Origin: an uncultured Bacilli bacterium
Lineage (GTDB): Bacteria; Bacillota_I; Bacilli_A; RF39; UBA660
DNA: 54,664 nt
Assembly: GCA_910586635.1 (NCBI GenBank)
Contig: CAJUJA010000001.1
Location: 1 to 54,664 of the forward strand
Reading direction: 5' to 3'
The notes beneath the pieces were generated by a model. That model saw only the letters and a list, made by a program, of their open reading frames with translations. It was not told the DNA's origin and searched no databases. Positions within the stretch are counted from its first letter, which is position 1, and each line of letters starts with the position of its first letter. The position numbers were made by a program, and so were the translations under genes. Of this stretch, positions 28,518 through 48,994 are shown in pieces.

Positions 28518-29129
28518 TTGAATTATAAAAATGTCAATGACTATGAAACATTATACTTGATAGGTGAGAATGATGAAGATTCTATGAATCAGTTGTTTAA
28601 AAAATATAGACCAGTTATTATTTCGATTGCTAAGAAATATTATTCTAAGATGAATTATCATTGTGGAGAATTAGAGGATTTTATTCAAGAAGGATATATA
28701 GGTTTGGATCGGGCTATTAAATCTTTTGGCGAATATAGAAATGTACTTTTTTATACATTTTCTGTTATATGCATAGAAAGACAAATAAAGAGTTACTGTA
28801 GAAGTTTTCTATCCTTAAAGAATGAGCATATAAATAACGCATTATCCATGGATCTTGAATTAGAGGAAAATTTTAGATTATTGGACTCTTTCCGTGAAGA
28901 TTCTGTTAGTGCAAATCCGGATTTATATATAGAGGAAACAACTGTTTTAAATGATTTAATTCGCTTTAAAAATAGTTTGTCTTGGAAACAAGGGTTAATA
29001 TTTGAGCTTCGATATAATGGTTTTAAATATAAAGAAATTTCAAGATTATTAGATATTCCCATTAGTACAGTAGATAATTGTCTACACATTTGTAGAAAAA
29101 AGTTGTCTAATAAGTTTACATTTTCTTAG
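28518..29129 (+). CDS. sigH: sporulation/transition-state sigma factor SigH-like
   Basis: Region 2 (DFIQEGYIGLDRAIKSF) and region 4 HTH (YKEISRLLDIPISTVDNCLHICRKKL). Its position after rlmB and before secE matches sigH. TTG start. Confidence 0.7.
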   Translation: MNYKNVNDYETLYLIGENDEDSMNQLFKKYRPVIISIAKKYYSKMNYHCGELEDFIQEGYIGLDRAIKSFGEYRNVLFYTFSVICIERQIKSYCRSFLSLKNEHINNALSMDLELEENFRLLDSFREDSVSANPDLYIEETTVLNDLIRFKNSLSWKQGLIFELRYNGFKYKEISRLLDIPISTVDNCLHICRKKLSNKFTFS

Positions 29130-31595: not shown

Positions 31596-32291
31596 ATGAA
31601 AAAAAGAAGTAAGAAGTATACAGAAGCTGTTTCTAAAATAGAAAAAAATAAAGTATATTCAAAAGAAGAAGCAGTAAAACTAGTAAAAGAGACTTCCATT
31701 AGTAAGTTTGATTCATCAATTGAAGTTGCGATGAGATTAAATGTAGATCCTAAAAAGGCAGATCAACAATTACGTGGAGCGATTGCTCTACCAAAAGGAA
31801 CTGGTAAGGAAGTTCGAGTTTTAGTAATTGCTAAAGGAGATCAGGCAAAAAAAGCTCAAAAAGCTGGAGCAGATTATGTTGGAGATGTAGATATGATCGA
31901 AAAAATTGAAAAGGAAAATTGGTTTGAATTTGATACTATGATTGCAACTCCAGATATGATGCCGCTTTTAGGAAAAATTGGACGTGTTTTAGGACCAAGA
32001 GGGTTAATGCCAAATCCAAAGACTGGAACCGTTACTATGGATGTAGAGAAGGCAATTGAAGAAGTAAAATCAGGAAGAGTTGAATATAGAACGGATACTT
32101 TTGGTAATATTCATGGAGTAATCGGGAAAGCATCTTTTTCTGAGGAAGATTTATTAGTAAACTTAAATGCTTTTGTATCAGCAATTTTAAAGGTAAGACC
32201 AACTACAGTAAAAGGTGATTATATTAAAAATATTTCTATTTCTTCTACTATGGGACCTGGAATTAAAGTTGAAAATAATTTTGACAAGTAG
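31596..32291 (+). CDS. rplA: 50S ribosomal protein L1
   Basis: Typical L1 blocks: [37 protein letters not shown]. Confidence 0.95.
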
Positions 32292-32299
32292 AAGATTAT

Positions 32300-32446
32300 A
32301 AGATATAATAAAGACAATTTATTGGTGCCATAGACAGTAGGTATAAAAATAAATCCTACCGAGGACTAAAAGTGTAAGAGTTCTTGAAATGTCTATTTTT
32401 AAGGACTTTTTTTATGGCATCCCTAAATAGAAGAAGGAGGTGTACT
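32300..32446 (+). promoter_or_regulatory. rplJ (L10) leader, probable L10(L12)4 autoregulatory element
   Basis: A leader of about 150 nt with paired segments (acagtaggt...cctac(c), catagac...gtctat). The position equals the Firmicute L10 leader. The structure was not verified against a covariance model. Confidence 0.45.
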
Positions 32447-32938: not shown

Positions 32939-32966
32939 AAAGTCAATGAAAGGAAGGAAAATAAAT

Positions 32967-33338
32967 ATGGCTAAATTAACAAAAGAAGATTTTATCAGTA
33001 GTTTAAAAGAAATGAATTTATTAGAAATTAAGGAATTAGTAGATGCAATGAAAGAGGAGTTTGGAGTTGATCCATCTGCTGTTGCTGTTGCTGCTCCTGC
33101 TGGAGGAGCTGATACTGCAGATGCTGCACCTAGTACGGTTACAGTAAGTATTGCTGATGCTGGTGCTGGAAAGGTTGCAGTTATCAAGGTAGTACGTGAA
33201 ATTACTGGATTAGGATTAAAAGAATCTAAAGACATCGTTGATCAAAATGGTGTAGTTAAGGAAAACATTCCTACTGATGAAGCTGATGAAATTAAAGCTA
33301 AGCTTGAAGAAGCTGGAGCTACTGTAGAGGTTAAGTAA
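32967..33338 (+). CDS. rplL: 50S ribosomal protein L7/L12
   Basis: [34 protein letters not shown], an Ala-rich hinge, and C-terminal [21 protein letters not shown]. Confidence 0.95.
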
Positions 33339-33366
33339 TTAACTTCTTTTTTTTTGAATTTTTGTA

Positions 33367-33375
33367 TGATATAAT
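33367..33375 (+). promoter_or_regulatory. extended -10 element (TGaTATAAT) 25 nt upstream of essC
   Basis: TG at 33367-33368 and TATAAT at 33370-33375. No good -35 element. Only a weak 5-bp hairpin plus T9 (33330-33355) separates it from rplL, so read-through from rplJL is plausible. Confidence 0.4.
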
Positions 33376-33399
33376 ACCTATTAGAATAGAGGTGGTTGA

Positions 33400-36300
33400 A
33401 TGTTAATTTATTTAATGCATGTAGATAAAATATATACATTTAAATTGCCGAAAAAAATTCAGGGAAATTATGTCTTGTCTGACTATGATTCTCAGGGAAA
33501 TAAGAGATCTTTAGTAAATGTAGATGCTAAGGACGGAAAATGGTATGTTTCTAGTAATATAGATGTAAAAATACAATATAATCAGAAAATGGTTACTTCT
33601 ATAGAACTCATTCTTTATAATTTTTATCAATTAACCTATGGAAATGAAAATATTATTATGTATGTTTGTCCTGGAAATGAAACCTCATATGTTGCTAAGG
33701 CTATTTCTAATAATCAAACGTTAGTAATTGGAAATGATTCTGGATGTGATATTACATATAATTACGCAGGTTTTTCTAAAAAACAGTTGGAGTTGACTTA
33801 TAAAGATGGAAAATATTCGTTTAAAAATTTAGACAATAGATATCCTGTTTATTTGAATAAAATAAGAAGAGAATCTGGTTATTTAGAGAATTTTGATACT
33901 TTATTTATAATGGGGCTCAAAATTGTTATTTGTGATAAATTTATATTAGTTAATAATCCTATGAAATTAGTTGTACTTATGTCCAATAAGTTTTGTGAAT
34001 TAAAAACGGAATTATCAATGGGAGATTATCATGTGGATAATGTGATTTATAAGGATTTTTATGATGAAAAAGATTATTTTAATAAATCCCCGGTATTTTT
34101 GAAAAAGATAAAGACTTTGGAGTTAGAAATAGCCCTTCCACCAGAAAAACAACGATCAGATGGAGAATCCATGTTAATTAAAATTGTACCATCTATTCTT
34201 ATGTTTTCAACCTCTGCTTTTACAGGAATACAAGCATTGATTAACGTTCAAAAGGATCCATCATCTTTACAAAGTAACTTATCTAGTATAATTATGTGTA
34301 TTGCATTATTTATTTCTAGTATTATTTGGCCTTTTGTAGAGCAGATGATAAATAAGTTTAGAATAGCAGGTGCTAATCTTAGAAGAGGCAGAAGGTTTTC
34401 AAAATATTTAAAGGGCAAGGAAAAAATATTGAAGCAGGCTATTGATGATCAAAAAATGATTTTATGTGATCGTTATACATCTTTAGGTGAAATACAGAAT
34501 ATTATTTTTTCTAAATTACCTAATTTATTTTCTAGAACAATAGAGAGCAGGGACTTTTTAGTAGTAAGACTAGGTATTGGAACGATTCCTTTAGATTGTG
34601 AAATTGATTTTCAAAAACCAGAGTACAGTGAAAATAATGATCATTTGATTGAAAATGCCGAAAAGATTATAGAAAATAATAAGTGGGTTCATGATGTTCC
34701 TTATACATTATCTCTATATAAAAATAATATTTTAGCATTTATAGGTCAAATTGAAATTATGCCAAATTATATGAAAGCCATTATGCTTCAGTTATTAACT
34801 TTTCATAGCTATAATGATTTAAAAATAGTTGTATTAACAGGGGAAAATGAAAATTCTTCTTTAAGTTTTCTAAGGGGATGTAACCATTGCTGGAATAATG
34901 AGAAAAGTAAAAGATTTTTTGCAAGTAACTTAAATGAAGGTGAGGAATTGTCATCCTTTTTAGAAAAAGAACTAATGAAAAGAATGGAAAAAGAGCAGAA
35001 GAAAGAGTTGCCTTATTATTTAATTGTTACTGATAATATTTCTATGTATAAGGATCTTAAAATTATAAAGGACTTAGATTCTAATAGTAGTAGGTATCAT
35101 ATGGGATTGATTATGTTTTGTCAAAAAGTTGCCGAAGTGCCTAGTACTTGTAATCACTTTGTTGATTACAAATTAAAGGAAGCAGCTTCCTTTAATTCAG
35201 AAATGGATCAAGATAGTTTGAATAAGTTTAATCCAGAGTTTATAGAGGATATAAATTTTAATGAGTGTATTAGAAGAATATCTAATATACCAATTAAATT
35301 ACAGGATGCTATATCTGGAAATTTGCCAGATAACCTAGGCTTTTTGGAATTATATGGAATAGGTAATGTCAAGCAATTTAACTCAATAGAGAAGTGGAAA
35401 AATTCAGATGTAATTAATAGTTTATCGGCACCTATAGGGGTTGATGTCAATGGAAATGTTTTAAACTTGGATTTGCATGAGAAAAGACATGGTCCCCATG
35501 GTTTAGTTGCGGGTATGACAGGTTCTGGTAAAAGTGAATTTATTGTTACGTATATTTTATCCTTGGCAGTTAACTATAGTCCTGATGAAGTTCAATTTGT
35601 ACTGATTGACTATAAAGGAGGAGGTTTAGCAGGTGCTTTCGAGAATAGAAAAACAGGAATGAAATTACCTCATTTGGTAGGAACTATTACCAACCTTGAT
35701 AAGTCAGAGATGAAGAGAACCTTGGTATCTATTAAGAGTGAATTACAAAGGAGACAAAGAGTATTTAATCTTGCTAAGGAAAGATTAAATACAGGAACTA
35801 TTGATATTTATAAATATCAAAGGTTAGTAAGGGAAAATCAACTTCAAGAGCCTATGTCTCATCTATTTATTATTTGTGATGAATTTGCAGAATTAAAGGC
35901 ACAACAACCTGATTTTATGGATGAACTTGTATCAGCTGCTCGTATTGGGCGTAGTTTAGGTATTCATTTAATTTTAGCTACGCAAAAACCTAGTGGTGTT
36001 GTGGATGATCAAATCTGGTCAAATTCTAAGTTTAAGGTTTGTTGTAAAGTGCAAACGGTAGAAGATAGTAAAGAAATGATCAGGCGTGATGATGCAGCCT
36101 ATTTAAAACAATCAGGAAGATTTTATTTACAAGTAGGATATGATGAATACTTTGTTTTAGGCCAGTCTGCTTATAGTGGAATTACCTATATACCATCTGA
36201 GAGAAGTAGAACTAAGATTGACGATTCTATAGACTTTTTAAATAATTCTGGTGAGGTTGTTAAAAATGTTACGAAACCTGAAGGAAAAGTAGAGATCCAT

Positions 36301-37941
36301 GAAGAATTAGGAGAAGAGTTGGGAAACGTTTTAAAGTATTTAATTGAGCAAGCAGCAGTATTAAATTTTCAAAATAAGCAATTATGGTTAGAAAATGTAG
36401 CTCCTATTATCTATTTAGAAGATATTAGAAAGAAATATGAGATTGGAATTAAACGATATAATATTAACCCTGTTATTGGAGAATATGATGATCCAAGAAA
36501 TCAAAAGCAGGGAAGTGTTACTCTACCTATTAATCAATTAGGGAATATTTTTATTATGGGAGTACCTGGTAGCGGAAAAAGTACATTATTATCAACTATT
36601 ATATATTCCGCTATAATTACGCATAATACAAGTGAGGTTAATTTTTATATTGTAGATTTATTGGCAGAAACTTTAAATCGTTTTATAAAAGCTCCTCAGG
36701 TAGGAGATTTTGTGACTACATCAACACCAGACAAAATCAAAAAATTATTTTACTTTTTAACAAGAGAAAATGAAAAAAGAAAAAGATATTACTCTGATAA
36801 AATTGGTGGTTTTGAGGGTGAATTAAAAAAAGAAAAGACAACTTTCCCAAGTACTATTGTTATAATAAATGGTATGGATGTTTTTAAAGAAGAATTTGAG
36901 TTTGAATATGAGGAGTTATTTGGACCACTTACTAGAGAGTGTAATCGTAATGGGATTTATTTTATAGTAACAGGAACTTCATTATCCTCATTAGGTTTTA
37001 TGGTTGAAAATAATTTTAGTGAAAAAATTGTAATGCGTTTGTTAGATAAAACAGATTATAATACTATCTTCCCTTCTAGTAATATAATTCCTGCTGAAAA
37101 TCCTGGTCGTGGATTAATAAAATTAGATGATGTTTATGAATTTCAAACAGCTCTTATTTTTAATGATGCTGTAATGGAAAATAATTTAAATTATGTATTT
37201 GAGCAATTAAATAAATTTATAAAAAATAGAGCAAAGAAAATACCGGTTATGCCTAAAATTGTATCTATAGACTCTATACGAGGAGAAATTACAGACTTAT
37301 CTGGTGTTCCAATTGGAATAGAGTTTAATAGTGCTTGCCCTTATTTATATGATTTTGATAATTTTATTAATTTAATACTATTTGAAAATAGTACAGTAGA
37401 TAAAACTTTTATTACGCAACTTTCTAATATTTTAATTCAAAGTATCGATTATAAACTAGTAATATTAGATGCTTATAATATTTTAGAAGATTTTAATCAT
37501 ACTAATATTAAGTTATATAACTCAAATTTTAAGAAATTAATTTCTAGTCTAATTATGAATATTGAAAAGTCAATTGCTAACAATTCTAATAATCAGTTAT
37601 TATTCTTAATTAATGGATATACAGAGTTAGAAAAACATTTAAATGAATTAAAGCAGGAAGATAATCATGTTCATAATATTACAGATTTAATTTTATCAGC
37701 AAAGGATAGCGGTAATTATAAATTTATTATTGCAGATCAAAATCGTTCATTACGCTCTTTGGATAATCCATGGGGAGCTTATGCTGATAATACTAATGGA
37801 ATTTTATTAGGGTTATCGGTAGATGATCAAAGCGTTCTTGTTGCAAAACCTAGATATGATTTAGAAGGACAAATTCTATCTGATACAGCAATGGTTGTAA
37901 AAGATGGAGAACAAGAGTTTATTAAATATGTACGAAGATAG
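33400..37941 (+). CDS. essC: T7SSb EssC/YukBA-type secretion ATPase (FHA-like N-domains, 2 TM, three FtsK/SpoIIIE-like domains)
   Basis: FHA-like LVIGNDSGCDITYNY...YPVYLNKIR. Two TM segments (about aa 258-320). D1 PHGLVAGMTGSGKSEFIVTYILSLAVNYSPDEVQFVLIDYKGGG (P-loop 35512-35535) with Walker B LFIICDEFAEL. D2 P-loop GVPGSGKST (36559-36585). The third domain has no P-loop. Confidence 0.85.
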   Translation: MLIYLMHVDKIYTFKLPKKIQGNYVLSDYDSQGNKRSLVNVDAKDGKWYVSSNIDVKIQYNQKMVTSIELILYNFYQLTYGNENIIMYVCPGNETSYVAKAISNNQTLVIGNDSGCDITYNYAGFSKKQLELTYKDGKYSFKNLDNRYPVYLNKIRRESGYLENFDTLFIMGLKIVICDKFILVNNPMKLVVLMSNKFCELKTELSMGDYHVDNVIYKDFYDEKDYFNKSPVFLKKIKTLELEIALPPEKQRSDGESMLIKIVPSILMFSTSAFTGIQALINVQKDPSSLQSNLSSIIMCIALFISSIIWPFVEQMINKFRIAGANLRRGRRFSKYLKGKEKILKQAIDDQKMILCDRYTSLGEIQNIIFSKLPNLFSRTIESRDFLVVRLGIGTIPLDCEIDFQKPEYSENNDHLIENAEKIIENNKWVHDVPYTLSLYKNNILAFIGQIEIMPNYMKAIMLQLLTFHSYNDLKIVVLTGENENSSLSFLRGCNHCWNNEKSKRFFASNLNEGEELSSFLEKELMKRMEKEQKKELPYYLIVTDNISMYKDLKIIKDLDSNSSRYHMGLIMFCQKVAEVPSTCNHFVDYKLKEAASFNSEMDQDSLNKFNPEFIEDINFNECIRRISNIPIKLQDAISGNLPDNLGFLELYGIGNVKQFNSIEKWKNSDVINSLSAPIGVDVNGNVLNLDLHEKRHGPHGLVAGMTGSGKSEFIVTYILSLAVNYSPDEVQFVLIDYKGGGLAGAFENRKTGMKLPHLVGTITNLDKSEMKRTLVSIKSELQRRQRVFNLAKERLNTGTIDIYKYQRLVRENQLQEPMSHLFIICDEFAELKAQQPDFMDELVSAARIGRSLGIHLILATQKPSGVVDDQIWSNSKFKVCCKVQTVEDSKEMIRRDDAAYLKQSGRFYLQVGYDEYFVLGQSAYSGITYIPSERSRTKIDDSIDFLNNSGEVVKNVTKPEGKVEIHEELGEELGNVLKYLIEQAAVLNFQNKQLWLENVAPIIYLEDIRKKYEIGIKRYNINPVIGEYDDPRNQKQGSVTLPINQLGNIFIMGVPGSGKSTLLSTIIYSAIITHNTSEVNFYIVDLLAETLNRFIKAPQVGDFVTTSTPDKIKKLFYFLTRENEKRKRYYSDKIGGFEGELKKEKTTFPSTIVIINGMDVFKEEFEFEYEELFGPLTRECNRNGIYFIVTGTSLSSLGFMVENNFSEKIVMRLLDKTDYNTIFPSSNIIPAENPGRGLIKLDDVYEFQTALIFNDAVMENNLNYVFEQLNKFIKNRAKKIPVMPKIVSIDSIRGEITDLSGVPIGIEFNSACPYLYDFDNFINLILFENSTVDKTFITQLSNILIQSIDYKLVILDAYNILEDFNHTNIKLYNSNFKKLISSLIMNIEKSIANNSNNQLLFLINGYTELEKHLNELKQEDNHVHNITDLILSAKDSGNYKFIIADQNRSLRSLDNPWGAYADNTNGILLGLSVDDQSVLVAKPRYDLEGQILSDTAMVVKDGEQEFIKYVRR

Positions 37942-37949
37942 GTGAGAAT

Positions 37950-38201
37950 ATGAATAAGATTTTAGTTAGTGTGAAGGTACCCACCATTGAGGAGGAATAT
38001 GACTTGCTTATTCCAATTGGAGAAAAGATGAGTGAGGTATTATTATTAATTCAAAAGTCAATTCATGAATTATCTGGTGGATATTATATGATTAATGAGG
38101 AAGCTAATTTGTATGATAGTATTGGTGGTAAAGTGATTAATAAAAATAATATAGTAAGATTTTCTGGATTAAAGAATGGAAGCAAGGTAATACTTTTATG
38201 A
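37950..38201 (+). CDS. esaB: YukD/EsaB-like ubiquitin-fold (beta-grasp) T7SS accessory protein
   Basis: An 83-aa protein starting 9 nt after essC. The pattern ILVSVKV...YDLLIPIGEKMSEVLLLI...GLKNGSKVILL resembles EsaB/YukD (ending ...GD.L.LL, no Gly-Gly). Confidence 0.6.
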   Translation: MNKILVSVKVPTIEEEYDLLIPIGEKMSEVLLLIQKSIHELSGGYYMINEEANLYDSIGGKVINKNNIVRFSGLKNGSKVILL

Positions 38202-38316
38202 GTGTAAAATTTTACAATCAGTTATCGATTTTTTTTATAAATTATTTAACATTATTGATATGAAAAAAGAGATATGTTAATATTGAATTATAATAATTGA
38301 AAGGAAGGTGAAAGAT

Positions 38317-38709
38317 ATGGCAAAATCAAGGATTAACCTATCAAACATGGTGTCTTCAGACGAGGAAATTTTTATAGCAAACAATATTATGGATAAAGCA
38401 GCTGAAGTTAGAGATATACTAACACAAATTGTTACAACTTATAACTACATTGAAAGGGAGTATAAGAAAGTATGGAATGATCCTAAAACAAGGGGGTCTT
38501 TTAAAACAATAACAGAAAAAATGGCTGCTGTTTGTAAAAAACGTGCATCTTACGCACATAATCAGCAAGTTACTATGTATCGTAGTATAGAGAAGTCTGT
38601 TCAGAAAAATAAGGCTGCTTCTAATTCGTTAAGGGCGGATGTAGAAGGAGCTGCTGAAGCCATGATGAATGAAATAAATGCAGATGCCAGAGACCAACTA
38701 ATACGTTAG
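38317..38709 (+). CDS. small all-helical WXG-like protein (candidate T7SS substrate or partner)
   Basis: A 130-aa protein. The ATG at 38317 is 8 nt after AAGGAAGG. Central ...KKVWNDPKTRGSFKTI... (W53...G60-x-F) lies between two predicted helices. No signal peptide. Confidence 0.5.
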   Translation: MAKSRINLSNMVSSDEEIFIANNIMDKAAEVRDILTQIVTTYNYIEREYKKVWNDPKTRGSFKTITEKMAAVCKKRASYAHNQQVTMYRSIEKSVQKNKAASNSLRADVEGAAEAMMNEINADARDQLIR

Positions 38710-38755
38710 TAGTTTATAGAGAGTTTAAAAAATATGATAAAAGGAGAATATAAAA

Positions 38756-39034
38756 ATGGCAAAGAATAGTATCAGTCCAAAGGTTGCGTTAAGTATTTCG
38801 TCAAAAGTAGCAAAATATATCAAGGATTTAGATAGCCAAATGACGCAATTAGCGGATGCAGTGGAACATTTAAATGCTCATTATTGGTATGGTGGAGCCA
38901 ATGCGAATGATTGGTATAATAAAATGACAGCACATTATATTAATGCATTATCTGCTAATCAACGTTTATTAGATATGAATAATAAGTTTAAAAAGCAAGT
39001 TACAAAATATAAGAGTGCTAGTGATTCAAAATAG
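38756..39034 (+). CDS. WXG100-family (EsxA-like) protein
   Basis: A 92-aa protein with W44-Y-G46 (HYWYGGANANDWYNKM) at the centre of a predicted helix-turn-helix hairpin. No signal peptide. RBS AAGGAGAA. Confidence 0.6.
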   Translation: MAKNSISPKVALSISSKVAKYIKDLDSQMTQLADAVEHLNAHYWYGGANANDWYNKMTAHYINALSANQRLLDMNNKFKKQVTKYKSASDSK

Positions 39035-39045
39035 GAATATAAAGT

Positions 39046-39315
39046 ATGAATGAAAAAATAAGAATTGATGATAATATGAATCAAGATATTAAATCTGCTA
39101 TCAATTACATAAATAATAACGATGACGGTTTTATAAATGGTGTTGATTTATATGCGGAGTTTCGTGAAGGTGCTGATCCGACTGGAGAAGCGGAGTTTTC
39201 TACCATCGATAAAGATGATGAAATAGAAGAACTTTCTGTTTCTGATGATAGTGTCGTTAAAAATCAAATCCAAGAAAATGATGAAGCATTAAATGTTGAT
39301 GATTTATTTGAATAA
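39046..39315 (+). CDS. highly acidic small protein (candidate T7SS cargo, chaperone or immunity factor)
   Basis: An 89-aa protein rich in Asp, Glu and Asn (..NNNDDGF.., KDDEIEELSVSDDS, C-terminal LNVDDLFE) with no hydrophobic segment. The RBS is weak (AGGAAT). Confidence 0.4.
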   Translation: MNEKIRIDDNMNQDIKSAINYINNNDDGFINGVDLYAEFREGADPTGEAEFSTIDKDDEIEELSVSDDSVVKNQIQENDEALNVDDLFE

Positions 39316-39343
39316 AAGTATTGACAAAATACTTTTATTTTTG
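39314..39343 (+). terminator. hairpin plus T-tract closing the T7SS-like operon (overlaps promoter-like hexamers)
   Basis: aaaagtatt (39314-39322) / aatactttt (39328-39336), then ATTTTTG. The same sequence reads TTGACA (39321-39326)-17 nt-TATACT (39344-39349). Confidence 0.45.
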
Positions 39344-39355
39344 TATACTAATGTT

Positions 39356-39670
39356 GTTAATATATGATAGTGGAGAAGGTGCTTTGAAGTTTTATTTTTA
39401 ATTGTGCTGGTCTCTGATTTGCTTGTTATACATATATTAAGATTACAATTGAAAAGAAGGAAAACTTTTAGGGTAAGTGGCAGGTATAGGTCTGAATACT
39501 GATATCATTTAGCTAATGATGCCCCTAATTAAACCGGAATAGTAAGTTTTTATCAGAAATTTACTATGAACTCAGGAAACACGACCAGACCAGAAATGTT
39601 GTGTAGAGTTTTTAAAAGAAAATAAATACATGTAATGTTATTTTAATATTCATGTATTTATTTTTTTTTG
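39356..39670 (+). ncRNA. candidate structured RNA of about 300 nt, or a long 3' UTR, of unknown class
   Basis: No ORF. Bounded by the TTGACA-17-TATACT element and a perfect 13-bp terminator aaataaatacatg / catgtatttattt plus T9 (39620-39670). Internal hairpins: atcatt-tagct-aatgat, atagtaa...ttactat, and long-range ctggtct / agaccag. Confidence 0.4.
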
Positions 39671-39685
39671 TTTTATGAAGTTATC

Positions 39686-39873
39686 GAAAATAAAAAAGCC
39701 TAATAGGCTTTTAGTTTAAAATCACTATTTATATATTTATCAGATACATAAATAATAATAATGCTTGTTTAGAGTTTTCTTTCTCTTACAATAATTACAA
39801 TTCCCCTAGTGCGGTAAGTTATTACTTTAAAATCGATCGCATTTGATCTTTTGATTCCTCTTTATTACTAGGT
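39686..39873 (-). ncRNA. candidate minus-strand small RNA of about 190 nt, unknown class
   Basis: Minus-strand TTGACA (39904-39909)-17 nt-TAATAT (39881-39886) promoter. Minus-strand terminator aaagcc-taata-ggcttt, followed on that strand by TTTTTATTTT (39686-39712). The longest RBS-linked ORF is only 6 codons. Confidence 0.35.
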
Positions 39874-39928
39874 TAATTTAATATTACTATAGGTTTTAGA
39901 AGATGTCAATATATTTTTGAAAAAAATG

Positions 39929-39957
39929 TTGACTATTCTGTCTTTTTGTTGTATTAT
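39929..39957 (+). promoter_or_regulatory. promoter candidate for ybxB-rpoB-rpoC (TTGACT-17 nt-TATTAT)
   Basis: Hexamers at 39929-39934 and 39952-39957. It sits back-to-back with the minus-strand promoter at 39881-39909. Confidence 0.5.
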
Positions 39958-39966
39958 ATCTTTACG

Positions 39967-40012
39967 AAAGGAGACAACTGTAGCACTTTATAGTAGTTGT
40001 CTCTTTCTTTTT
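39967..40012 (+). terminator. leader hairpin plus U-tract (attenuator-like) between the promoter and ybxB
   Basis: gagacaact (39971-39979) / agttgtctc (39995-40003) with a 15-nt loop, followed by TTTCTTTTT. It lies 17 nt before the ybxB ATG. Confidence 0.5.
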
Positions 40013-40028
40013 GTATTTGGAGAGGATC

Positions 40029-40613
40029 ATGGGGCATTATTTTACAAACGAAAAATTACCAAGTGAAGTTAAGAAAACAAATTGTATAGTTAGAAACTGT
40101 AGTTTTGTTTTTTTGACAGATCGTGGTGTCTTTTCGAAAGAAGGACTAGATTTTGGCAGTAGACTTTTACTTGAATCCATCCCGCTTGTAGAAGTTGGAG
40201 CTAAAGTTTTAGATATGGGTTGTGGCTATGGTGTATTTGGTATTGTTTTAAATAAACTCACTAATGCTTGTATTGATATGGTAGATGTTAATTTACGGGC
40301 CTTACATTTAGCAAAACGTAACTTGGCTTTGAATGATTGTAGTAATATCCATGTTTTTGAAAGTGATTGTTATTCTAATATTGATCAAAAATATAATACT
40401 ATTATTACTAATCCGCCAATACGTGCGGGTAAAAAAATTGTTTATGAGATATTGATGAATGCAAAAGGATATCTAGAACCTGATGGAAATCTTTTCTTAG
40501 TAATTCGAAAAGAACAGGGTGCTAAATCGCTAATATCCGACTTAAGTAAAGTGTATAATGTTGAGATATTAGAAAAGAAAAAAGGATTTTTCGTATTAAA
40601 GTGTTCATTTTAG
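40029..40613 (+). CDS. ybxB: class I SAM-dependent (RsmC/RlmG-like) methyltransferase, YbxB-like
   Basis: VLDMGCGYGVFG (motif I) and IITNPPIRAGK (NPPxH/R-type motif IV). Located between rplL and rpoB, as ybxB is in B. subtilis. Confidence 0.75.
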   Translation: MGHYFTNEKLPSEVKKTNCIVRNCSFVFLTDRGVFSKEGLDFGSRLLLESIPLVEVGAKVLDMGCGYGVFGIVLNKLTNACIDMVDVNLRALHLAKRNLALNDCSNIHVFESDCYSNIDQKYNTIITNPPIRAGKKIVYEILMNAKGYLEPDGNLFLVIRKEQGAKSLISDLSKVYNVEILEKKKGFFVLKCSF

Positions 40614-48073: not shown

Positions 48074-48994
48074 ATGGAGAAAATTGATTTGTCAGGATGT
48101 AGAGAGTTTTTAATAGATGCTTATGAGGTTCAAAGAGAAAATGGATCTATTGGTTATATAGATGAGTATACTTATAAGAATACTTTAAAAGCTGCTGAAG
48201 ATAAAATTGAAGAGAAAAGAAATGAATTAAAAGCTTTGTTAAAGAGGTTTAGGGATAACAATCCTTTAAATAATCCTGCTTTTTCTAGTCAATCTCCATC
48301 TTTTTTTGCCTATCCATCTTTATTGGATTATGATGATGATTGTATAACTACTACAGATGGAAGGATCATTGTTGATGACTTTAAGCAGGCTGCTAATAAA
48401 AGAAGACAAGATGTTATAAATAGACGTTTTTCTTTAAAAAGAGTTGTTTCCACAGTAGGAGTTGCTCTTGGTTTAATGGCGGCGACAAAGGCTGCCTACA
48501 ATTATACTTTGGATAGTAATCACCATATTAGGGTTGAGGCACCAACTAAACCTGAAAGGGATAGTTATACTACGATGAGGAAAAACAAAAGTGGGATAAG
48601 GGTCGGTGTTTCAAGTATGCATACTATGAATAAGGAGTCTAGTATTTCCTTAATCGAGGATCCCATTCAGTTAGAAGATATTCAATTGTATTATAGTAGT
48701 GATGAACAAAAGCCTAGTGTAAAGACAAAGGAATTAGCTTGTGATAGTTATAAAATAAATCGTATTGCTATTCTTTCACATGATGGAAAAAAAATTATTA
48801 AAAATATCAATGCGAATAGACTAGATTCCACTATGAATATAGATGATTTTAAGGAAAATTGTCGATTGTTATATGGTGATGACATCAGGTTTAAAATTAA
48901 TGTTCATGGAATTATTGACGGTAAAGTAGTATATAAACAAGCAGGATGGACTTCAATGAGAAATATTAAAGATAAGAAAGCAAAAGTTTATTGA
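48074..48994 (+). CDS. bitopic membrane protein, function unknown (occupies the ybxF/L7Ae slot)
   Basis: RBS AAGGGGA. It has its own promoter-like TTGCTT-17-TATAAT. A single central TM (VVSTVGVALGLMAATKAAY) separates N-terminal (about 125 aa) and C-terminal (about 160 aa) soluble regions. Confidence 0.5.
   Translation: MEKIDLSGCREFLIDAYEVQRENGSIGYIDEYTYKNTLKAAEDKIEEKRNELKALLKRFRDNNPLNNPAFSSQSPSFFAYPSLLDYDDDCITTTDGRIIVDDFKQAANKRRQDVINRRFSLKRVVSTVGVALGLMAATKAAYNYTLDSNHHIRVEAPTKPERDSYTTMRKNKSGIRVGVSSMHTMNKESSISLIEDPIQLEDIQLYYSSDEQKPSVKTKELACDSYKINRIAILSHDGKKIIKNINANRLDSTMNIDDFKENCRLLYGDDIRFKINVHGIIDGKVVYKQAGWTSMRNIKDKKAKVY

Follow-up and report, generated by a model that had tools for sequence, protein, structure and literature searches.

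We analysed a 54,664-nucleotide (nt) stretch of DNA from an uncultured Bacilli bacterium (contig CAJUJA010000001.1, positions 1 to 54,664; hereafter the window), which carries at 33400..39315 a cluster of five genes headed by essC, the gene for the ATPase of a type VII secretion system (T7SS). We conclude that this cluster is probably a functional, reduced T7SS module of the Firmicute T7SSb lineage, fixed at a site between rplL and a methyltransferase gene in one clade of uncultured gut Bacilli with low G+C. The membrane proteins EsaA, EssA and EssB, which an earlier note on this DNA rightly took to be needed by characterised T7SSb machines, were in our judgement rather likely lost, or never acquired, in this clade, which would leave EssC as the sole membrane protein that the locus encodes. 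The earlier note had left two options, that the partners are encoded elsewhere or that the architecture is a reduced one; comparative evidence from 80 related loci favours the second.

The first gene of the module encodes a protein of 1513 amino acids (aa) that scored 906 bits against the NCBIfam equivalog model for EssC (TIGR03928, cut-off 778), covering model positions 4-1293 of 1296. Pfam recognised FtsK_SpoIIIE domains and, over residues 109-162, an FHA domain, and the layout as a whole comprises two N-terminal FHA-like domains, two hydrophobic (transmembrane) stretches, a DUF region and three ATPase domains. The best solved relative is B. subtilis YukB (388 bits), with actinobacterial EccC at 188 bits. 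Read by eye, the hydrophobic stretches lie at approximately residues 258-282 and 292-315; our hydropathy scan (19-residue window, threshold 1.6) flagged only the second of them (295-313), together with a marginal segment at residues 166-184 (1.68) that falls within the cytoplasmic FHA region. Walker A motifs are present at 705-712 in the first ATPase domain and at 1054-1061 in the second, and the Walker B motif FIICDE is at 823-828; the third domain is degenerate and lacks a Walker A motif. The second FHA domain (FHA2) reads IGN.../FSKKQ against the canonical GR/SxxH, the phosphothreonine-binding Arg and His being gone.

For comparison we scanned one genome per species and obtained 80 loci that encode relatives of the window's EssC (35-93% identity). 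All are from uncultured gut bacteria, which their submitters labelled variously as Bacilli, Tenericutes, Mollicutes, Erysipelotrichaceae, Clostridium sp. CAG:451 or CAG:245, and Candidatus Coprovivens. We cite single loci by our own numbers; the closest relative is L007, whose EssC is 93% identical to that of the window.

Four small genes follow essC, in the order ubiquitin-like, ~130-aa, WXG-like and acidic (the last three are called A, B and C below), and the open reading frames (ORFs) stand where the earlier note had placed them. A near-universal T7SS core has been described that consists of TsxA (WXG100), TsxB (ubiquitin-like) and TsxC (ATPase) (PMC11217815). For the 83-aa product of the gene next to essC, AlphaFold2 predicted a beta-grasp fold (pLDDT score 95.3), and the top Foldseek matches in the PDB were all ubiquitin-like (E from 4e-5, TM 0.6-0.73), including the ubiquitin-like domains of mycobacterial EccD (7npt, 4kv2). 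Profile-profile comparison with canonical EsaB by hhalign gave a probability of 48% (E 1.8e-4), with the motif YD-x-x-IP in common. The protein has no C-terminal Gly-Gly and ends ...KVILL, and its gene adjoins essC in 68 of the 80 related loci. It gave no match to Pfam YukD, and the family profile found no match among PDB sequences. On the modelled fold and the profile comparison, we accept it as the EsaB/YukD (TsxB) equivalent.

The 92-aa B protein carries a central W44-Y-G46, and the W-x-G is kept across clusters c19 and c18 of its family. The family profile aligned in register with Pfam-positive WXG100 clusters from the related loci (90%, E 1.6e-6), which in turn matched canonical EsxA at 93%; a profile search of the PDB gave a weak match to an ESAT-6-like protein (E 0.06) and otherwise mostly designed coiled coils. 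No family member scanned singly reached the Pfam WXG100 model (PF06013), the returns being coiled-coil noise only, and because the curated WXG100 models were not reached we call the protein only divergent WXG100-like. The labels 'yukD-like' and 'WXG-like', as the earlier note had them, therefore find support in structure prediction and profile-profile comparison but not in any direct Pfam or NCBIfam match.

The A and C proteins matched no Pfam or NCBIfam family. A is soluble and belongs to a family found beside the WXG-like gene; it is homologous to cluster c64 of the related loci (hhalign 95%), its position in the triad is held by c64, c67, c50 or c49 in other loci, and it shows weak similarity (5-14%) to the WXG100 clusters. 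The family of the acidic C protein is defined by an N-terminal motif, I-x-I-x-D-x-M-P-x-D-L-K-x-A-I-x-[FY]-L-N, and a C-terminal motif, D-L-[DN]-x-[LIMF]-F, placed at the very end or one residue before it, with a poly-acidic linker between the two; homologues occur, for example, at L010:5600-5848 and L029:15691-16005. These acidic proteins may be an undescribed family of T7SS accessory or signal-bearing proteins. The A-B-C triad recurs in homologous form among the related loci.

We compared each gene of the module with its counterpart in L007 (dS, the synonymous divergence, 0.5-1.2) and obtained ratios of nonsynonymous to synonymous divergence (dN/dS) of 0.05 for essC, 0.08 for the ubiquitin-like gene, 0.20 for A, 0.22 for B and 0.08 for C; with values this low (0.05-0.22), all five are real genes under purifying selection. 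The same five-gene set persists across species in which EssC identity is down to ~45-54%. These observations bear directly on a rival reading in which the cluster no longer secretes or is decaying, a relic whose EssC is kept for another role or heading for loss. The missing partners and the lack of a large effector in the module would fit such a relic, as would a second essC that is split or truncated in L008 and L031 (pieces of ~350-460 aa and ~1040-1160 aa). However, the 1513-aa ORF of the window is intact, Walker A and B of its first ATPase domain are complete, and neither the selection on essC and on every small gene (none above 0.22) nor the persistence of the five-gene set over such distances is what decay would leave; we regard a relic as very improbable.

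The evidence that the module is reduced comes from searches for the missing partners at several levels. Only EssC has transmembrane helices: the hydropathy scan cleared the 83-, 133-, 92- and 89-aa ORFs of hydrophobic segments, in agreement with the earlier note, and the module encodes no large polytopic membrane protein such as EsaA/YueB is (EssA/YueC being a small single-pass one). Among ORFs of at least 20 aa in 37940..40020 there was no conserved membrane peptide; a hydrophobic 21-aa micro-ORF at 38198..38263, considered as a hidden membrane protein, was rejected since it is kept in no relative, not even the closest. Pfam and NCBIfam models identified no YukC/EssB, EssA or EsaA among the module proteins and the other membrane or unassigned window proteins scanned, nor among the recurrent or membrane-protein neighbours of essC in the related loci. 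We also built custom hidden Markov models (HMMs) from three canonical T7SSb loci (Listeria, Bacillus mycoides and Limosilactobacillus), in all of which the genes are contiguous in the order esxA-esaA-essA-esaB-essB-essC; the window, with essC first and the small genes after it, departs from this order; the earlier note had drawn the contrast with the B. subtilis order. Run against the window (54.6 kb) translated in six frames, these HMMs detected no EsaA, EssB or EssA, which bears out the claim that none of the three stands beside EssC. Applied to the window and the 80 related loci together (1.5 Mb, six-frame; 54.6 kb from this genome and, around the essC of each relative, no more than 24.6 kb, ~10 kb each side), they returned 0 matches for EsaA, 0 for EssB and 0 for EssA, and in the same search 85 for EssC (up to 809 bits) and 25 for EsxA. 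Leave-one-out controls recovered their own families (EssB 374 bits, EsaA 696, EsaB 98, and EssA 48, a weak family for which the sensitivity of the HMM is limited), so EsaA, EssB and EssA would have been detected had they been present in the sequence searched.

These results weigh on the possibility that the system is a split but ordinary T7SSb, with canonical essA, essB and esaA elsewhere in the genome. Such an arrangement would suit the EssC itself, which is of T7SSb type, scores above the equivalog cut-off and has YukB as its best solved match. Against this, the six genes are contiguous in the three canonical loci, whereas none of the three partner genes lies within ~10 kb of essC in the 80 species-level loci, genomes with two essC paralogues included, and a consistent separation in every species would be unusual. 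We therefore hold a split T7SSb to be quite unlikely.

Clustering of the ORFs from the 80 loci gave as recurrent neighbours of essC only the ubiquitin-like gene and proteins of ~80-135 aa, small and helical or acidic, some of which are bona fide WXG100 or DUF4176 proteins, families that are typical T7SSb accessories. Larger recurrent neighbours were considered as novel partners and rejected: none is found clade-wide, and they proved to be housekeeping or miscellaneous genes, encoding among others SMC, a HerA-like ATPase, HtrA, a ZIP transporter, SpoIID, a glycosyltransferase-TPR protein, Abi_2, a bacteriocin ABC exporter and an FtsX-like permease. Two further kinds of neighbour were seen in a few loci. 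In the distant relatives L064, L074 and L077 a ParA/CbiA-like ATPase of ~274 aa directly follows the ubiquitin-like gene, and in L053, L055 and L058 a pseudopilin with an N-terminal methylation motif is encoded nearby; both recall the Tad/TadZ associations reported for T7SSf, T7SSg and T7SSh.

The genomic setting of the module is a housekeeping one. The window has a G+C content of ~29% and contains the gene string cysS–mrnC–rlmB–sigH–secE–nusG–rplK–rplA–rplJ–rplL–(methyltransferase)–rpoB–rpoC–rpsL–rpsG–fusA–tuf, a conserved Bacillus-type order into which the module is inserted between rplL and the gene for an RsmC/YbxB-like methyltransferase. The same insertion site, rplL–essC–methyltransferase–rpoB, is common to 14 related loci. 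Since the EssC proteins of these loci, L007 (93%) aside, are only ~44-54% identical to that of the window, we consider the insertion to be old and vertically retained. In L089 and L095 essC is absent from the site and the methyltransferase gene directly follows rplL. The junction between rplL and essC contains a weak AT-rich hairpin followed by a T-run, an extended -10-like element (TGaTATAAT, 33367-33375) and the Shine-Dalgarno sequence AGAGGTGG; a terminator scan found no G+C-rich terminator in it. Farther upstream, a perfect TTGACA-17-TATAAT promoter (32281-32309) precedes the L10 leader, which in turn precedes rplJ. Judged from these elements, the essC module may be transcribed from two sources, the strong rplJL promoter and a local promoter.

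Two proteins encoded elsewhere in the window had been proposed in the earlier note as candidate membrane partners. The first, of 227 aa, was described there as tail-anchored and pseudokinase-like, and this description is correct. Its family profile matches protein kinases (TTK, E 4e-4) in the region of the catalytic loop, its predicted structure is confident over residues 1-150 (pLDDT >90) with PDB matches that are exclusively protein kinases, and a transmembrane segment lies at the extreme C-terminus; the catalytic residues are replaced, so we class it as a pseudokinase. At 50% identity the family falls into 222 clusters, nearly all of them 200-250 aa long. The protein is the best candidate for a non-canonical membrane partner acting in trans, an analogue of EssB or of TshM that would dock on the FHA domains of EssC. 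TshM of T7SSh is likewise weakly Ser/Thr-kinase-like, with one C-terminal transmembrane segment and no extracellular domain, and the FHA domains of T7SSb are the docking site of the EssB pseudokinase and have lost their phosphothreonine-binding residues (PMC11217815), a loss paralleled in FHA2 of the window's EssC. The 227-aa gene is also 3.5 kb upstream of essC in the same gene string in 10 of the 11 ribosomal-context loci with enough flank.

The partner role does not follow from this resemblance, however. The protein consists of a kinase C-lobe only (~150 aa) and has neither an N-lobe nor an alphaC helix, and it is through the alphaC helix of its N-lobe that YukC contacts FHA2 of YukB (PMC12637312). 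EssB/YukC proteins have a two-lobed pseudokinase domain, a central transmembrane segment and an extracellular C-terminal domain. Similarity to EssB was nil (hhalign 0.5%), and EssB was not among the top 50 structural matches. The linkage of the gene is to sigH: it lies 48-70 nt downstream of sigH in every context examined, including L094, where the genes that follow are unrelated, and it is present in L089 and L095, where the site has no essC. Conversely, L029 has essC at rplL without the 227-aa gene upstream, and no member of the family was found near essC in any non-ribosomal locus among the related loci. The protein is thus rejected as an EssB on fold, sequence and linkage, and is best read as the product of a sigH-linked gene, a T7SS role not being supported by linkage. 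A non-canonical partner in trans, with this protein as its best candidate, we consider unlikely. As an observation in its own right, sigH forms a conserved pair with a C-lobe-only 'half-kinase' gene, whose product, bound to the membrane, might regulate the SigH-like sigma factor.

The second candidate, a 306-aa protein that the earlier note had called bitopic, does not stand up. It is a singleton with no relative in the 80 loci, its peak hydropathy (1.43) is below the transmembrane threshold, and hhalign comparisons with EssB, EssA and EsaA gave at most 1.5%. In L016 rpsL directly follows rpoC. More distant relatives carry the secretion system itself at other places; in two of them, L062 and L081, it is found after rpoC (rpoC-c143-essC), the position occupied in the window by the 306-aa gene.

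We therefore return to the reduced module as the favoured reading and suggest how it might work. By homology with YukB and YukD, EssC would oligomerise in the membrane, its own transmembrane helices and stalk forming the conduit, and the ubiquitin-like protein would dock on the FHA/DUF region of EssC much as YukD binds that region of YukB (PMC12637312). More speculatively, the core secreted substrate or a co-factor could be the WXG100-like protein, possibly as a pair with the ~130-aa protein, and it could engage the C-terminal ATPase domains of EssC, and the acidic protein might serve as an adaptor or co-substrate that is recognised via its conserved C-terminus.

Several points weigh against a self-sufficient module of this kind. 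The sequence covered around each essC is limited to the extents given above, and partners could be encoded in trans. In the core unit of B. subtilis, in which YukB, YukC and YukD are present at 1:2:1, YukC is required for function (PMC12637312). Because EssC keeps two FHA domains, the T7SSb docking site for EssB, a partner of a kind not yet recognised may be expected. The organisms are uncultured and secretion by the module is a prediction from sequence; the WXG100 and YukD assignments draw their support from fold and profile-profile comparison, the curated models having given no match; and the window's module includes no large LXG-type effector.

A stronger form of the proposal, which we put forward only tentatively and would not ourselves bet on, is that EssC and the ubiquitin-like protein make up the complete translocon, a whole clade of gut Bacilli then running a natural five-gene T7SS with the ATPase as its only membrane protein. 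The composition of the T7SSb channel and its essential components are unsettled, the first core unit (YukB:YukC:YukD) having been solved by cryo-electron microscopy in 2025. If EssC and the ubiquitin-like protein did suffice, EssB, EsaA and EssA would be lineage-specific additions and not parts of the channel, and the system would be wired firmly into the string of ribosomal-protein and RNA-polymerase genes, perhaps being expressed along with it. For a secretion system, a fixed place between rplL and rpoB is unusual. A naturally pared-down system derived from T7SSb, of five small-to-moderate genes, would offer a compact target for reconstitution and structure determination, and a test of whether the conduit can be made by EssC alone. 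For annotation, the finding of EssC without its usual partners in a metagenome-assembled genome need not signal an incomplete assembly, and the catalogue of T7SS variants, built from RefSeq isolates, gains a common group of uncultured gut bacteria.

Other features of the window are listed with the module genes in the table. The spacer between the acidic gene and the methyltransferase gene is 89.7% identical to that of L007, compared with dS values of 0.4-1.2 for the flanking genes. On its plus strand we noted a promoter-like TTGACA-17-TATACT (39321-39349) and after it a stretch of ~300 nt with a folding z of -3.2, closed by an AT-rich hairpin and its T-run, and on its minus strand a promoter-like site (39909-39881) and a terminator (39712-39694). 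An Rfam search of the spacer returned no family; its elements are candidate small RNAs. Outside this region, 4518..8419 encodes three paralogous proteins of ~203 aa with an N-terminal hydrophobic segment and no Pfam match, followed by an S26 signal-peptidase-like protein (6458..7216), a 230-aa protein and a 163-aa protein with four transmembrane segments, an arrangement that resembles a secreted-fibre operon of the SipW/TasA type. A SpoVT/AbrB-type regulator (SpoVT_C, E 1e-27) is encoded at 1036..1566 and SpoIID- and SpoIIR-like genes occur in related contigs, which suggests that sporulation genes may be retained in this reduced-genome lineage.

Table. Positions of the T7SS module, its borders and other features of the window discussed in the text.
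Feature	Position	Strand	Basis or remark
sigH	28518..29129		pairs with the 227-aa gene
Tail-anchored kinase-like protein, 227 aa	29187..29870		family profile, predicted structure
rplL	32946..33338	+	upstream border of insertion site; Pfam Ribosomal_L12
rplL-essC junction, 61 nt	33339..33399	+	sequence reading
essC, membrane FtsK/SpoIIIE-type T7SS ATPase, 1513 aa	33400..37941	+	TIGR03928, Pfam
EsaB/YukD-like (TsxB-type) ubiquitin-fold protein, 83 aa	37950..38201	+	predicted fold, profile comparison
A protein, 130-133 aa, soluble	38308..38709	+	likelier start ATG at 38317 (130-aa gene call)
B protein, 92 aa, divergent WXG100-like (TsxA-type)	38756..39034	+	central W44-Y-G46, profile comparison
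C protein, 89 aa, acidic	39046..39315	+	homologous to c65 (95%) and c22 (69%) by hhalign
Spacer, acidic gene to methyltransferase gene, 695 nt	39316..40010		
RsmC/YbxB-like small methyltransferase	40011..40613	+	downstream border, rpoB next; Pfam MTS, E 1.6e-44
306-aa protein	48074..48994		singleton among loci

Comparison with known T7SS types places the module more precisely. The earlier note had called the architecture previously uncharacterised, which is an overstatement: eight variants without EsaA, EssA and EssB, T7SSc to T7SSj, have already been published, and some, T7SSg for one, are very simple (Garrett, Higginson & Palmer 2024, PMC11217815). That survey drew on RefSeq, and Mollicutes, Erysipelotrichaceae and metagenomes go unmentioned in it (PMC11217815); our own literature search found no paper on T7SS in the present lineage. 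The set to be compared consists of an FHA-bearing EssC of T7SSb type, a ubiquitin-like protein, a WXG-like protein and two unclassified small proteins, and we identified no kinase, phosphatase, DUF5050 or TsdI-type component in the cluster.

The resemblance to T7SSb lies in an EssC with two FHA domains lacking phosphothreonine-binding residues, two transmembrane stretches, a DUF region and three ATPase domains, in a small EsaB/YukD-like ubiquitin-fold protein and a putative WXG100-type small protein, and in the DUF4176 and further WXG100 genes of related loci. The module differs from T7SSb in that EsaA/YueB, EssA/YueC and EssB/YukC are found neither at the window locus nor at those of the 80 relatives, in having A and the acidic C as additional conserved small proteins outside known families, and in being embedded in the rplKAJL-rpoBC housekeeping string. 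T7SSg, from Acetivibrio and Paenibacillus, has a similarly small predicted core of two small WXG-type proteins, a ubiquitin-like protein and an ATPase, also without EsaA, EssA or EssB. However, its ATPase, TsgC, has no FHA domains, whereas the window's EssC does, and T7SSg includes TsgL, a DUF5050 beta-propeller protein, and an adjacent Tad pilus locus; no DUF5050 match was obtained in the module or among its recurrent neighbours.

With T7SSh the likeness lies in TshM, which has the same topology as the 227-aa protein of the window, the two having been compared by description only. TshM is encoded inside the T7SS cluster, whereas the 227-aa gene is paired with sigH and independent of essC; TshC has no FHA domains; and the EspG-like TshG was not identified in the window's module, where no test for an EspG fold was made. 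The ATPases of T7SSi resemble the window's EssC in having FHA domains with poorly conserved phosphothreonine motifs. T7SSf, known from Clostridia, has TsfA, TsfB and an ATPase that bears FHA and lies near the T7SSb branch, and the ParA/CbiA-like ATPase of a few distant relatives of the window's clade recalls the TadZ-like TsfV of T7SSf; the window's module, in contrast, has no PPM phosphatase (TsfF), DUF6382-FHA protein (TsfJ) or AAA+ TsfV by Pfam and NCBIfam. The arrangement in the window thus matches none of the component lists of Garrett and colleagues: the concept of a T7SS without EsaA, EssA and EssB is known, and this arrangement of it is new.

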